Assembly (NCBI GenBank): GCA_963667465.2 | Contig: CAXXDN010000002.1 | Span: 352,001-416,000 of the forward strand | From: Dehalococcoidia bacterium | Lineage (GTDB): Bacteria; Chloroflexota; Dehalococcoidia; UBA2979 | Direction of reading: 5' to 3' | DNA length: 64,000 nucleotides | Part shown: positions 54,832 through 59,126 of the stretch, piece by piece | How positions within the stretch are numbered: position 1 is the stretch's first letter | Layout of the letters: each line of letters opens with the position of its first letter | Translations under genes and position numbers: made by a program | The notes under the pieces: generated by a model | What the model saw: only the letters and a program-made list of their open reading frames with translations | Told to the model about the DNA's origin: nothing | Database searches by the model: none

Positions 54832-55905
54832 GTGGACCTCCAACCAACAGACCTCCAGGAGCTGTTGCGCGGCAACGCCGAGGACGTCCTCGGGCGCGAG
54901 GCGCCCGCCGACCGCGTCCGCGAGATCGAGCAGGCAGGCGAGCCCGACGCCGCGCTCTGGTCGACGCTCGTCGACCTCGGCTGGACCGGGCTCGCGGTGC
55001 CCGACGAGCACGGGGGCCAGGGCGGCTCGCTGCTCGACCTCGCCGTGATCGTCGAGCAGCTCTGCCGCCACGCCGTGCTGACGCCCTTCGTCCCGACCGC
55101 CCTCGCCGCGATCGTGGTCCAGCGGCACGGCGACGAGGCGCTGCAAGCCGAGCTGCTGCCCCGCATCGCCGAGGGTGCGACGGTCGCGATCGCTCTCGCC
55201 GAGGGCCACGGCGAGCTGCGCGACCTCGCGGCGACGTACGCGGACGGCGCGGTCAGCGGCGAGAAGCGTTTCGTCGAGTACGCGCGCAGCAGCGACCTGC
55301 ACCTCGTCGCCGCGAGCCGCAACGGCACACCGGGCCTCGCGATCGTCCCGGCCGGCGCCGCCGGTGTGCGCGTTGAGCAGGACCTCGTGAGCATCGGCAA
55401 GACGCCGCAGGCGATCGTCGCCTACGAGGGCGCACCGGCCGACGCCTGGATGGAGGGCGAGGCAGCCGTAGAGGATCTGCGGCGGCTCGGATCGGCGCTG
55501 GCCTCGCTGGAGTCGTACGCGCACGCGCAGCGCGCGCTCGACATGACGGTGGACTACGTGCAGACGCGCGTGCAGTTCGGGCGGCCGATCGGGTCGTTCC
55601 AGGCGGTGCAGATGCGGCTCGCGGACCTTGCGACGCGCGTGCAGGCGAGCAACTTCCTGGTGCACGAGCTGCTCTGGCACTTCGATGAGGGCAGCGACGA
55701 CCCGGAGCAGATCGCGGTCGTGAAGGCGGTGACGGCGCAGACGGTGGCGCAGGTCACGCAGGACTGCCACCTGCTGCACGGCGGCATCGGCTTCATCACG
55801 GAGTACGACCTCTACTTCCACACGATCCGTGGCAAGGAAGCCTCGCTGCGCTTCGGTGGCGCCGGCGAGGCGCTGCGCACCGTCGCCGACGCCCTCCTCG
55901 ACTAG
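54832..55905 (+). CDS. Acyl-CoA dehydrogenase (short partner subunit)
   Basis: LGW, EHGGQG, RVQFGRPIGSFQAV, LHGGIGF; GTG after GGGAG. Confidence 0.9.
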   Translation: MDLQPTDLQELLRGNAEDVLGREAPADRVREIEQAGEPDAALWSTLVDLGWTGLAVPDEHGGQGGSLLDLAVIVEQLCRHAVLTPFVPTALAAIVVQRHGDEALQAELLPRIAEGATVAIALAEGHGELRDLAATYADGAVSGEKRFVEYARSSDLHLVAASRNGTPGLAIVPAGAAGVRVEQDLVSIGKTPQAIVAYEGAPADAWMEGEAAVEDLRRLGSALASLESYAHAQRALDMTVDYVQTRVQFGRPIGSFQAVQMRLADLATRVQASNFLVHELLWHFDEGSDDPEQIAVVKAVTAQTVAQVTQDCHLLHGGIGFITEYDLYFHTIRGKEASLRFGGAGEALRTVADALLD

Positions 55906-55927
55906 CCGCGCGCACGCGCGATCCGGT

Positions 55928-55982
55928 CCCCTCGCCCCTTGCGGGAGAGGGCGGTCCGGCTCCCTCGCCCCTTGCGGGAGAG
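55928..55982. repeat. Two tandem REP-like palindromes; the second is split by the IS110
   Basis: CCCCTCGCCCCTTGCGGGAGAGGGCGG (55928-55954) then CCCTCGCCCCTTGCGGGAGAG (55962-55982), continuing as GGCGGGGGGTGAGGGG at 57473. Confidence 0.85.
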
Positions 55983-56003
55983 ACACCCCAGGGTGCTAAG
56001 GCG

Positions 56004-57227
56004 TCAAGCGGCGAGCTGTTCGCGGTCGTGGCGGTGCGCCCAGGCGGTGGCCTCGTCGTAGGGGCGACGTGCCTTCAGGCAGCCGTGGAGGTAGCCGACG
56101 AGGCGGTTGCCGAGAGCGCGCAGCGCCTGGTGGTGGAGGTCGCCCGCGGCGCGGCGGCGGTGGTAGAAGTCATGGCAGCCGGGGCTCGCCTGCAGCGAGC
56201 AGAGCGCCCAGCGGTCCACGGCGTCGGCGAGCCGGCGGTTGCGCACGAAGCGGGCGCGCACGCTGCGCTTGCGGCCCGATGCTACGGTGAGCGGCGAGGT
56301 GCCGGCGTAGTTCCTGCGGGACTTCGCCGACTCGTAGCGTTCGGGGTCGTCCCCGAACTCGCCGAGCACCCGGGCGCCGAGCACGACACCGAGACCGGGC
56401 AGGGAACGGTAGATTGCGGCGTCCGGGTGCTGCTCAAAATGGCTCGTGAGCGCGGCCTCGAGCTCCGTAAGCTGACGGTTGATCTCGCTGATCTGCGCGA
56501 CCGCCGCGCGGGTGCTCGCGGCGAACGCCCGGCTCACGGCAGGCGGCGCCTCGAGTTGCGGGGAGCGCAGCGCGTCGCGCACCGCGGCGGCGCGCCGCTC
56601 GAGGTTGCGCTGACGTCCGCCGCGGCGCAGCGCCGAGCGGATCTTCGACGTGCTCAGGCGCGCCGCCTCGCGCGGCTCGCTCGCCCGCGCCAGCACGCCC
56701 AGGGCGTCGCCGTGCGCGAGGCTGGGGAAGGCCTGCAGGGCAGCCGGGAAATACTCCCTGAGGGCGTTGCGCAGCCGGTTGGTCTGGCGCACGCGGTCCC
56801 AGATCAGCTGCTGGTGGGCGCGGGCGAGGATGCGCACCGCGGCAGCCTCGTCGCTGTCGCCGGCCAGCGGACGGTGGTTGTGGCGGTCGGTGCGCACGAG
56901 GTCGGCGAGCAGCTTCGCGTCGGCGGCGTCGGACTTGGCGCCGCCCAGGTGGTGACGCTCACGGTAGCGCGCCGCCGAGCGGGGGTTGATCGCGTAGACG
57001 CGGTAGCCGGCCGCGAGCAGGGCCGTGACCCAGGGTCCGCGGTCGGTCTCGATGCCGACCACGACCGCGCCCGGGTCTGAGGCGTGCTCGGCAACCAGTT
57101 CGTGCAGCACGGCGACGCCCGCGACGCCCTCGGGCAGCCGCCTGGCGGCGAGCCGTTCGCCGGCCTCGTTCATGAGCTGGACATCGTGGTGGTCTTCGGA
57201 CCAGTCGTCACCGACGTAGAGGGTCAT
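56004..57227 (-). CDS. IS110-family transposase/recombinase
   Basis: YVGDDW, GIETD, INP, KSDAADA (DEDD RuvC), SLPGLG, YAGTSPLTVASG (Ser loop). Confidence 0.96.
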   Translation of the reverse strand: MTLYVGDDWSEDHHDVQLMNEAGERLAARRLPEGVAGVAVLHELVAEHASDPGAVVVGIETDRGPWVTALLAAGYRVYAINPRSAARYRERHHLGGAKSDAADAKLLADLVRTDRHNHRPLAGDSDEAAAVRILARAHQQLIWDRVRQTNRLRNALREYFPAALQAFPSLAHGDALGVLARASEPREAARLSTSKIRSALRRGGRQRNLERRAAAVRDALRSPQLEAPPAVSRAFAASTRAAVAQISEINRQLTELEAALTSHFEQHPDAAIYRSLPGLGVVLGARVLGEFGDDPERYESAKSRRNYAGTSPLTVASGRKRSVRARFVRNRRLADAVDRWALCSLQASPGCHDFYHRRRAAGDLHHQALRALGNRLVGYLHGCLKARRPYDEATAWAHRHDREQLAA

Positions 57228-57264
57228 CGTGCCTCGCTTTCCTGCGCTTCGTGCTGCTGTTTGC

Positions 57265-57462
57265 GACCTGCCGGGCTGGTCCTGCGACGGCCTAATGGAC
57301 CAGTGCTCTCGGGCACGACACCCCAGGAGTGCTGTGGACCACCCGGACGCACCAGCCGGGGCACGGTCTCTCCCTGGAGATCGCAGTGTCTCGGGGAGGG
57401 GCAGTGCTCACCGGCCGGCCGGTCCAAGACCAGTCTCCCAGATCGCTCCAGGGTCCGGTCGA
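57265..57462 (-). ncRNA. Predicted IS110 bridge RNA (ends approximate)
   Basis: Two long stem-loops (57351-57419 and 57271-57346) whose internal loops match the reconstructed target and donor junctions. Confidence 0.85.
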
Positions 57463-57600
57463 ACCCCATTAGGGCGGGGGGTGAGGGGTCGCCGCGCGCC
57501 AGCGCGGCCAGCAAGGCCGGTAGGGGCTTGTGAGGGCGGAAGCCACAGGTCCCGCGCGTTGACCGCGCACGCGGGGCGTGCGTTCAATGGCCAGGCAGGT

Positions 57601-57676
57601 GCGGGGGTAGCTCAGCTGGTAGAGCATCTGCCTTCCAAGCAGAAGGTCGCGGGTTCGAGACCCGTCCCCCGCTCCA
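57601..57676 (+). tRNA. tRNA-Gly(TCC)
   Basis: Acceptor GCGGGGG/CCCCCGC, D-arm GCTC..GAGC, anticodon arm TCTGC-CTTCCAA-GCAGA, GGTTCGAGA T-loop, encoded CCA. Confidence 0.97.
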
Positions 57677-57803
57677 CTCACCCACCCGCTGGACCCCGCC
57701 CACAGCCACCATGCGAGATTACGCGCGCGCCCCGGCGACGCCTGTCGGTGGTAGGTTCGCCCTCGTGGCACCGGGTGCACGACGAAGATTCGAGGAGGAC
57801 GGC

Positions 57804-59126
57804 ATGGCGGACGACGGATTTGCGCCGGACTGGGACGCGCTGACCGAGGAAGCGACGGAGCTGCTCTCCGCCTACATCCGCGTCGACACCGTCAACCCGC
57901 CGGGCAACGAGACGCGCGCTTGCGACTTCTACGGCGAGATCCTCGATCGTGAGGGCATCCCCTACCGCGTCTACGAACCCGCTGACGCTCCCGGCCGAGG
58001 CACCCTTGTCGCCACGCTGCCTGGCGACGGCACGGGCGGCAAGCAGTTGATCCTGCTCAACCACACCGACGTCGTCCCTTTCGAGCGTGAGTACTGGACG
58101 GTCGACCCGCTCGGCGGCGAGGTCAGCGACGGCTACATCTGGGGTCGCGGCACCCTCGACATGAAGGGGATGGGCATCATGGAGCTCATCACCTTGCTGC
58201 TCCATCACCGCCACAAGCTGCCGCTGCGGCGTGACCTCACCTTCATCGCCGTCGCCGACGAGGAGGCGGGCAGCGTCTATGGCGCGGAGTTCCTCGCACG
58301 AGAGCACCCGGAGGTCATCGACTGCGTGTGCGTACTGAACGAGGGCGGGCGTGGCAGCACGCGCGCGTTCGGCGTGGAGCGGCCGCTGATGCAGATCGGG
58401 GTGGCGGAGAAGATCCCCTTCTGGGTGCGACTGAGTACGCAGGGCCGTCCCGGCCACGGCTCCGTTCCGACCCCGGACAACGCCGCCGACCGCCTCGTGC
58501 GCGCGTTGCAGCGGATCCAGGACTGGGAGCGGCCCCCGCAGATCGGCCCGGAGCTGCGCGCCTACTTCGAGGGGCTGCACGCTGCGGGCCTCCTCGACGA
58601 GGAGCCGACCGCGGAGACGATCGAGCAGGTCGCCGCGCGTCAGCCGCGAGTCGGGGCGCTGCTCCGGAACACCATCTCCCTGACCACGTTCCAGTCCGGT
58701 GTGAAGCACAACGTGATTCCCGCCGAGGCGAACGCGACCCTCGATTGCCGCTTGCTGCCGGGCTCGGACCCGGACGCCTTCCTCGCCGAAATGGTCGAGG
58801 TGATCGACGACGACCAGGTCGAGGTGGAGGTGGTGCTGCGCAGCTACGGGCCGCCCTCGCCGATCGACTCGGAGCTGTACGAGACGCTGTCCCGGTCGGT
58901 GCGCAACGCGGTCGAGGACGCGGTCGTCGTCCCCTGGACCTCCACGGGGTTCACGGACTCGCGGGTGTTCCGCCGCATGGGCTACCCGGCGTACGGTTTC
59001 ACGCCGGTCTTCGTGCCGCCCTCGGATCAGGCGCTCGGGCACGGCAACGACGAGCGCATCGCGATTGACGGCCTGCGGATGGGGATGCAGATCCTGCATG
59101 ACACCGTGCGCCGCATCTGCGGGTAG
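57804..59126 (+). CDS. M20-family metallopeptidase/amidohydrolase
   Basis: NPPGNE, HTDVV, GRGTLDMKG, ADEE, NEG, GHGS, HGNDE. Confidence 0.92.
   Translation: MADDGFAPDWDALTEEATELLSAYIRVDTVNPPGNETRACDFYGEILDREGIPYRVYEPADAPGRGTLVATLPGDGTGGKQLILLNHTDVVPFEREYWTVDPLGGEVSDGYIWGRGTLDMKGMGIMELITLLLHHRHKLPLRRDLTFIAVADEEAGSVYGAEFLAREHPEVIDCVCVLNEGGRGSTRAFGVERPLMQIGVAEKIPFWVRLSTQGRPGHGSVPTPDNAADRLVRALQRIQDWERPPQIGPELRAYFEGLHAAGLLDEEPTAETIEQVAARQPRVGALLRNTISLTTFQSGVKHNVIPAEANATLDCRLLPGSDPDAFLAEMVEVIDDDQVEVEVVLRSYGPPSPIDSELYETLSRSVRNAVEDAVVVPWTSTGFTDSRVFRRMGYPAYGFTPVFVPPSDQALGHGNDERIAIDGLRMGMQILHDTVRRICG

Follow-up and report, generated by a model that had tools for sequence, protein, structure and literature searches.

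Among the closest described systems to the element reported here is IS621 of Escherichia coli, whose recombinase works with a bridge RNA. In the account given by Durrant et al. 2024, the bridge RNA of IS621 and 103 orthologues has a 5′ stem-loop, a poorly conserved first internal loop and a much more conserved second one, and a split promoter is rebuilt across the circle junction. The same source predicts bridge RNAs in 85.7% of catalogued IS110 elements, describes some IS110 orthologues with longer right target guides, and gives an average rise in on-target insertion from 69.4% to 84.9% with a right target guide of 7 bp. Hiraizumi et al. 2024 place the catalytic residues of IS621 at D11, E60, D102, D105 and S241-G242, and describe handshake guides, the two bases 3′ of each right guide, which pair with the incoming strand after exchange and for which covariation is reported at position 7 only. 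Here a comparable element is described in a stretch of 64,000 nucleotides (the window) from a Dehalococcoidia bacterium of the phylum Chloroflexota (GenBank assembly GCA_963667465.2, contig CAXXDN010000002.1, positions 352,001 to 416,000 of the forward strand); coordinates below are those of the window unless a contig is named. An earlier reading of the bare letters, the sequence-only reading, had proposed an IS110 bridge-recombinase element at this locus. The analysis presented here leaves us highly confident that it is a genuine IS110-group bridge-recombinase insertion sequence, intact, recently expanded, and built and aimed as proposed; our confidence that it is active today is somewhat lower.

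Results

Read on the minus strand, the element (Table 1) starts with CT-AATGGGG and finishes with GGGGTGT-CT. Its right end is CCTGGGGTGT-CT, with CTCCC lying outside, and the left flank CCCCGCC precedes CT-AATGG. The left end comprises 243 nt of non-coding sequence upstream of the ATG (57470-57228) and the right end the 21 nt from the stop codon to CT; a long non-coding left end, a short right end and a 2-nt core common to both junctions are traits of the IS110 group. The guide-like strings, the empty target, the donor junction and the left end were all found where, and as, the sequence-only reading had placed them.

The genome that holds the window (2,966,484 bases in two contigs, 70.7% GC) contains 10 full copies of the element, all of them 100% identical, together with a partial one at a contig end. 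When the flanks of the ten copies were lined up, similarity ended exactly at CT on both sides, and CT was present at both junctions in 10/10. The left flank was CCCCGCC in five copies and CCCCTCC, CCCCCCC, CCCCACC, CCCAACC and CGCCCCC in one each, corresponding to CCCC-N-CC in eight and close variants in two, with position -3 being G in five, C in two, A in two and T in one. The right flank was CTCCC in 9/10 copies and AACCC in the other. The sequence split by the insertion is a hairpin resembling a repetitive extragenic palindrome (REP), reading CCCTCTCCC, loop, GGGAGAGGG and then GCCGGA, and 127 copies of it in hairpin form are present in the genome. Insertion is site-specific, all ten copies lying in variants of one 14-bp REP site with the insertion point in the 5′ arm of the GC-rich hairpin; the REP target proposed from the letters is borne out by these ten identical copies. 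A REP consensus was built from the 42 unoccupied CCCCNCC-CT-CTCCC sites of the genome, 40 of which have G at -3. Among sites with the exact pattern, a base other than G at -3 was commoner in occupied (3/7) than in empty ones (2/42; one-sided Fisher p = 0.017, small numbers), which suggests that the present guide chose those sites.

Relatives were collected by a scan of one genome per species. This gave 243 stretches encoding relatives, of which the best 80 (L018-L097, 67-92% amino-acid identity) were retained. They come mostly from Dehalococcoidia metagenome-assembled genomes (MAGs), with some from Actinomycetota (Smaragdicoccus, Mycobacterium, a Pseudonocardiaceae MAG and an Acidimicrobiales MAG). 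All but two of their 39 distinct upstream regions keep the CT-AATGGG start. In L020 and L026 the region upstream of the donor loop is replaced, and these are probably truncated or rearranged copies. Both ends were readable in 81 insertions.

The predicted target guides were compared with the flanks of the insertions to which they belong, using 19 guide classes and 44 distinct guide-flank pairs and counting wobble on the left side (U opposite top-strand C, G opposite top-strand A). Left out of these tests were L004, the window's own copy; L020 and L026, for the replaced left end; L041, L044, L048, L076 and L078, in which the right-end motif is absent within the locus; L083 and L087, which are cut by contig ends; and the L091-L095 class, whose flanks are cut by contig ends and whose visible flank parts agree with the guides (L092 right flank 5/5, L094 3/5). 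Against the left flank of its own insertion the left guide matched at 5.73 of 7 positions, compared with 3.41 after shuffling, and the right guide matched its own right flank at 4.52 of 5, compared with 2.01; for each side, 0 of 10,000 shuffles scored as high. Thirteen of the 14 distinct right-guide 5-mers matched their right flank at four or more of the five positions. Among individual loci, the left guide CAACAAC+CU of L074 faces the flank CAACAAC-CT, the right guide CACGA+AG of L043 faces TCGTG, and further right guides and flanks correspond as GTTGT/ACAAC (L061), GGCCT/AGGCC (L084, L093), CGTCT/AGACG (L089) and AGGTT/AACCT (L097). Covariation of guides with targets across other insertions had been named by the sequence-only reading both as a check and as the point on which its proposal could fall; relatives with other targets do have other loop sequences.

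Broken down by position over 24 loop classes, pairing on the right side was 0.93-1.00 from +1 to +4, 0.74 at +5, 0.08 at +6 and 0.29 at +7, while on the left side, with wobble, it was 0.73-0.93 from -1 to -7, 0.51 at -8 and 0.34 at -9. Since pairing extends from -7 to +5, the natural target of the family is predicted to be 7 + CT + 5 = 14 bp. Close relatives aimed at the same REP as the window copy have G at -3 (CCUCGCC, CCUUGCC) and U opposite top-strand C elsewhere. In the window copy itself, the left-target string first picked out, CCCCUCCC, lies at 57401-57394, and GGGAGAG at 57374-57368. As predicted features, the target guides are validated by covariation with the flanks in relatives, not by their match in the window sequence.

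The structure of the predicted bridge RNA was examined on an alignment of 37 distinct left ends, using an explicit model of 42 pairs in seven helices (1,545 cells). Standard pairs were found in 94.0% of cells, compared with 25.8-45.1% when the 3′ partners were slid by 1-3 columns, and 18 of the 42 pairs showed compensatory change on both sides. The observed values were reached by 0/500 shuffles for four of five measures and by 13/500 for the fifth. Where two stem-loops had been claimed, three are predicted, a 5′ stem-loop preceding the two binding loops. The target-loop helices (2-4) were paired in 97.9%, 99.3% and 100% of cells, with eight pairs changing on both sides, and the clearest covariation lies in the target-loop inner hairpin (column pair 114/126: AU 19, GC 12, GU 6). 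The weakest helix was the outer stem of the donor loop (helix 5), paired in 81.7% of cells with seven pairs changing on both sides, a low value due in part to an alignment register that differs between subgroups. Helix 6 of the donor loop was 100% paired, with A-U replaced by G-C in 6/37 sequences; helix 7, the donor-loop inner hairpin, is invariant and therefore uninformative. The stems named by the sequence-only reading all exist and, apart from this last hairpin, are backed by compensatory changes in homologues. Over the 37 left ends the target-loop columns are variable and the guide columns of the donor loop invariant or nearly so. A fold produced by RNAalifold, in which the first bases of the left end pair with the right donor guide, was treated as an artefact and set aside for the explicit structure, because by design the right donor guide complements the left-end terminus, and this terminus is probably upstream of the transcription start. 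A search of Rfam at E <= 1 gave no match to a bridge-RNA family, only tRNA, Ms_AS-4 and a sub-threshold Guanidine-II.

The donor guides, in contrast to the target guides, stand out in the window sequence alone. Shuffling the 243-nt left end 5,000 times with dinucleotides preserved produced the left donor 11-mer once and the right donor 7-mer (CCAUUAG, 57298-57292) five times, both being beyond chance. Over 15 distinct pairs, left-donor positions -1 to -8 were identical to the guide in at least 0.93, and guide and end change together between G and A at -4/-5, a subgroup carrying GGGATGT, not GGGGTGT, in both. Positions -9 and -10 pair in about half of the relatives (0.53 and 0.47), which reduces the conserved left donor guide to 8 nt plus the core C; the 11/11 match originally described is present in the window copy, and its two outermost positions are not a general property of the family. 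The right donor guide is invariant in 37/37 left ends, which is conservation only, with no covariation. The core dinucleotide belongs to all four guide pairings. At the position of the published handshake, the donor-loop base following CCAUUAG and the last left-target base (-1) were G:C in 35 rows, C:G in three (L088, L090, L096) and G:T in two, all 40 rows being compatible, and the second handshake position showed no covariation. The AC that follows GGGAGAG in the target loop is a candidate handshake guide; it is complementary to GT, the last two left-donor (right-end) bases, and AC or AU stands opposite GT in 40/40 rows.

Promoter elements were sought in the same ends. TTGAC occurs at the same distance from the end in 27/28 distinct junctions, with varying neighbouring bases. 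On the circle only, we infer a candidate -10 element spanning the junction, composed of the last right-end base, the CT core and the first three left-end bases, with five positions matching the consensus; its conservation is inseparable from that of the donor ends. There were no sigma-70-like sites in the integrated context between 55900 and 57700, and a promoter and terminator scan of the integrated locus found nothing. A locus with no promoter while integrated would fit the published proposal that the promoter is rebuilt on the circle.

The element encodes a recombinase of 407 amino acids in a single long open reading frame, with matches to PF01548 (6.9e-38, 130.3 bits, cut-off 29) and PF02371 (7.1e-11, 42.8 bits, cut-off 21.3). 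Its candidate catalytic residues, D8, E60, D100, D103 and S317-G318, are invariant in 13/13 homologues, and in a profile alignment D8, D100, D103 and S317-G318 align with the published catalytic residues D11, D102, D105 and S241-G242 of IS621 and with those of ISCro4. E60 was assigned by the GIET motif, since in the HMMER alignment it is two columns off the E. A single-sequence phmmer search against all PDB chains gave no match at E <= 0.001, so that a profile of the 13 homologues was needed to reach these proteins; the profile matched the ISCro4 transposase 9t56 (1.5e-11) and the IS621 transposase 8wt6 (4.6e-11) over both domains. With both Pfam domains present, the catalytic residues invariant and these profile matches, the proposal of an intact recombinase is supported.

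Table 1. Positions of the element, its flanking target and its predicted parts in the window
Feature	Position	Strand	Remarks
Whole IS110-group element	55981..57472	minus	1,490 bp, with the CT core present once more (CT at 57472-57471 and 55982-55981)
Left half of split REP-like target (CCCCTCACCCCCCGCC)	57473..57488	minus	Last 7 nt = left target; flanks of 10 copies
Right half of split REP-like target	55956..55980	minus	CTCCC (right target), loop and 3′ hairpin arm
Predicted bridge RNA, 5′ stem-loop	57428..57460	minus	GACCGG/CUGGUC; helix 1, 6 pairs, 95.0% of cells paired, 2 pairs change on both sides
Predicted bridge RNA, target-binding loop module	57351..57419	minus	Outer stem of 9 bp, second stem GCAC/GUGC, internal loop, inner hairpin GAGA/UCUC (57392-57377)
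Candidate left target guide CCCCUCC plus two core positions reading CC, not CU	57393..57401	minus	Sense of left-target top strand; would pair with bottom strand
Candidate right target guide GGGAGAG, then AC	57366..57374	minus	Reverse complement of CT+CTCCC
Predicted bridge RNA, donor-binding loop module	57271..57346	minus	11-bp outer stem CCGGGUGGUCC/GGACCA(G)CCCGG, second stem GCAC/GU(C)GC with one bulge, internal loop, inner hairpin
Candidate left donor guide CCUGGGGUGUC	57317..57327	minus	Identical to last 10 right-end bases plus core C
Donor-loop inner hairpin GUGC/GCAC	57316-57303	minus	Helix 7
Candidate right donor guide CCAUUAG, then GC	57290..57298	minus	Reverse complement of CT+AATGG
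Recombinase gene, 407 amino acids	56004..57227	minus	DEDD/RuvC-like domain and Tnp domain; single long open reading frame
Right end with -35-like TTGACG (56007-56002, overlapping TGA stop)	55983..56007	minus	18-nt spacer to last right-end base

Within the recombinase gene, Rfam family RF02464 (Ms_AS-4, an actinobacterial small RNA) was matched at 56322-56403 on the plus strand (65.1 bits, gathering threshold 50), antisense to conserved codons of the Tnp domain; the match may reflect conserved coding sequence. A tRNA-Gly(TCC) gene lies at 57601-57676 on the plus strand, about 130 bp from the insertion.

Several further observations concern the REP target. A second, unoccupied REP copy at about 55925-55953 adjoins the occupied one, and its left target, GACCGCC, is a poorer fit to the guide CCCCUCC. 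In 3/37 distinct REP insertions, from three genomes (L002, at C2:1583211-1584702 of the window's own genome, L018 and L019), AACCC replaces CTCCC as the right flank. AA is also how the element's left end begins, and here it breaks the pairing with the intact REP 3′ arm. A REP variant as the source of this flank was rejected, there being 0 unoccupied sites of the form CC-N-CC-CT-AACCC in the window's genome; templating by the donor beyond the core, or a rearrangement at a later time, could account for the flank. In a subfamily comprising L018-L024 and L072, the right guide GGGAG is kept and the left guide is UGGCUCC. These elements insert at CGGCTCC-CT-CTCCC, which lies in the other arm of that palindrome, on its reverse strand; one guide has here been re-aimed naturally.

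With regard to copies and sizes, relatives L073, L075 and L077 (1,575 bp) and L090 and L096 (1,802-1,814 bp) are 80-320 bp above the usual 1,490-1,500 bp and have the same end motifs. The window's genome also carries three copies of a second IS110-family element of about 1,514 bp (L013-L015, at C1:223676-224143, C1:460108-460575 and C2:26930-27397). Strings in its left end correspond to its right end and, in reverse complement, to its left terminus, and CTTGAC occurs in its right end. The partial copy of the first element (C2:1903831-1904564, at the contig end) and the full copy at C1:3265-4756 share one right flank, and nearby REP sites recur on both contigs. C1 and C2 thus appear to overlap at their ends, and the partial copy probably does not represent a further insertion. 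Assembled contigs from four public runs were mapped on the locus; among the runs listed for the sequence, none is on record as RNA. Over 55600-57900, the word depth of the X1-X3 contigs inside the element was about 6-14 times that of the unique flanks (in X3, 2,280.7 compared with 165.6-175.5), which is in line with a multi-copy element, contig depth not being a copy number.

Discussion

Very probably the element works like IS621, as a recently active member of the IS110 group. Its limits, copies, protein domains, fold covariation and guide covariation are observed; transcription, circle formation and catalysis would proceed as follows. The element would be excised as a circle joined at the CT core, bringing the right-end -35-like TTGAC beside the left end. 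A bridge RNA of about 200 nt would then be transcribed from the left end, with a 5′ stem-loop, a target-binding loop and a donor-binding loop. The guides of the target loop would together specify the 14-bp site in the 5′ arm of the REP-like hairpin, and those of the donor loop, UGGGGUGU+C and CCAUU+AG, would recognise the element's own right-end/left-end junction. Strands would be exchanged at the CT core by the DEDD/Ser recombinase (D8, E60, D100, D103, S317), one base 3′ of each right guide being placed to pair with the incoming strand as a handshake. The layout of an IS621-type bridge RNA with a CT core, as proposed by the sequence-only reading, is upheld by covariation both in the fold and between guides and targets.

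A number of results weigh against this interpretation. In the shuffles of the left end, the right target guide 7-mer arose in 473/5,000 (9.5%) and an 8-mer within one mismatch of the left target in 1,879/5,000 (38%), both within chance, and the single-sequence minimum free energy of the left end was no better than that of shuffles (z = -0.51), so that fold energy was dropped as evidence and covariation used in its place. The case therefore rests on the comparison with relatives. There, the shuffle tests overstate independence, because many classes come from related genomes and 11/24 loop classes share the REP target, and some loci fit imperfectly: L061 and L062 match at 2/7 as aligned, their left guide fitting well only one base further 3′, L073 has one extra loop base, and the right flank of L096 matches at 2/5 only. 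In the window copy, the left guide has U at -3, a U-C mismatch to the G found in 5/10 occupied and 40/42 empty sites, and its second core position is C, not U (U, A or C in relatives). The candidate -10 element has no A at position 2 and would fail a promoter-scan rule; of the junction promoter that was said to be readable, TTGAC at its fixed distance stands and the -10 is less well matched. Among the contigs of the four runs at the locus, no right-end/left-end circle junction was listed. A contig of run X9 passes from 55980 directly to 57471, leaving out 1,490 bp, with 2 ambiguous bases, and is consistent with an empty site, weakly so because one of its sides is 24 nt only and lies inside the repeat.

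Three other explanations were considered. The first is that recognition is dual, the guides being necessary and not sufficient, with the REP hairpin read as a second specificity determinant. This would account for the position of all ten copies in the 5′ arm of a GC-rich hairpin and for a left guide that tolerates any base at -3, base pairing alone looking loose, and a preprint on ISPpu10 reports the target stem-loop as an added determinant there. Against it, ten classes of relatives (L043, L052, L061, L063, L074, L084, L086, L088, L089, L097) insert in non-REP sequences that match their own guides; the hairpin is therefore not required family-wide, and we regard dual recognition as possible but on balance unlikely. 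It is quite improbable that the element, though a real IS110 copy, is now immobile after a recent burst, silenced or missing a host factor, with its guides as a historical record. Such an element would explain why no circle junction appeared among the contigs, and the mismatch at -3 to the commonest REP variant could reflect drift. The ten copies are nonetheless identical throughout, with an open 407-amino-acid frame and all catalytic residues, the excess of bases other than G at -3 of occupied sites points to selection of those sites by the present guide, and the contig without the insertion, from another host's run, argues weakly for mobility. Finally, that the structured left end is a 5′ untranslated region or protein-binding end regulating the transposase, the protein picking the target and guide-like matches being by-products, is extremely unlikely: the chance-level target matches in the window and the reading of the donor matches as conserved end-binding sites would agree with it, but across 19 classes the target-loop segments change with the flanks (0/10,000) while compensatory changes preserve the stems, the handshake base changes along with the last left-target base, and for IS621 the requirement for the RNA is reported as shown by experiment (Durrant et al. 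2024).

The AACCC flanks would fit a natural side-reaction outside the published model, in which strand exchange or branch migration runs two bases beyond the CT core and the heteroduplex is resolved toward the donor, a reading that appears improbable to us. If it occurs, the AA footprint, the re-aimed guide of L018-L024 and the span from Dehalococcoidia to Actinomycetota would together form a natural data set on the drift and re-targeting of bridge recombinases.

The locus shows that the IS621 bridge-RNA rules (two binding loops, the core in every pairing, a single handshake base) can be read from sequence in a very GC-rich uncultured lineage, whose recombinase has diverged so far from IS621 that a simple sequence search does not connect the two. 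With a natural target of 14 bp and no fewer than 14 right guides that differ in nature and have targets to match, the family is a candidate source of orthologues for GC-rich genomes. The element leaves current understanding unchanged, because Durrant et al. 2024 predicted bridge RNAs widely and noted longer right target guides. In a limited literature search, no paper on IS110 in Chloroflexi, Chloroflexota, Dehalococcoidia or sponges surfaced, and the database cluster has a single member and carries no name.

Compared with IS621, as described by Durrant et al. 2024 and Hiraizumi et al. 2024, the element has in common a DEDD and Ser recombinase, a long left end, a very short right end, a CT core and a REP target. 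The predicted RNA likewise consists of a 5′ stem-loop, a variable target loop and a conserved donor loop, the left guides having top-strand sense and pairing with the bottom strand, the right guides pairing with the top strand and the core taking part in all four pairings. Both share the handshake at position 7, and the promoter split across the junction in IS621 would have its counterpart here in the -35-like TTGAC and the candidate -10. The element differs in a protein about 80 amino acids longer (407, compared with a PDB chain of 328 residues), a relationship missed by single-sequence phmmer; in a second core position of the left target guide that is often unpaired (C in the window copy, A or C in several relatives); and in a host of 70.7% GC. 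The right target guide is core plus 5 (7 nt) here, compared with 4 bp in the published descriptions of IS621. The sequence-only reading had called both right guides longer than those of IS621, which holds for the target guide; the donor match is not longer, as IS621 pairs seven donor bases. The 7-nt right target guide is real, but longer right guides are already published for IS110 orthologues.

Nearer relatives are the IS110 family transposases of Rhodococcus, Mycolicibacterium and Mycobacterium plasmids (H1-H9), which are 67-69% identical in amino-acid sequence over 97-98% of the length. The description of the element as belonging to a distant lineage is fair with respect to IS621 but has to be set against this degree of identity. 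On the chromosomes of Smaragdicoccus and Mycobacterium, relatives L091-L097 have the left-end architecture, the CT-AATGGG start and the TGGG(G/A)TGT-CT end in common with the element. The Rhodococcus, Mycolicibacterium and Mycobacterium relatives differ in having other target-loop guides and targets, none of them aimed at the window's REP. ISPpu9 and ISPpu10 of Pseudomonas putida are described as inserting, like the present element, into repetitive extragenic palindromes, ISPpu10 with a target stem-loop beside the paired site; their hosts are unrelated, and ISPpu9 is reported with a downstream small-RNA gene, compared with 21 nt between stop codon and core here, these differences being drawn from the descriptions. 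Elements of the IS1111 group, with their seekRNAs, belong to the same recombinase family and are likewise described as RNA-guided, but according to those descriptions carry the RNA in a long right end and have subterminal inverted repeats of 7-17 bp. With a left end of 243 nt and a right end of 21 nt, the element described here therefore belongs to the IS110 group, not the IS1111 group.

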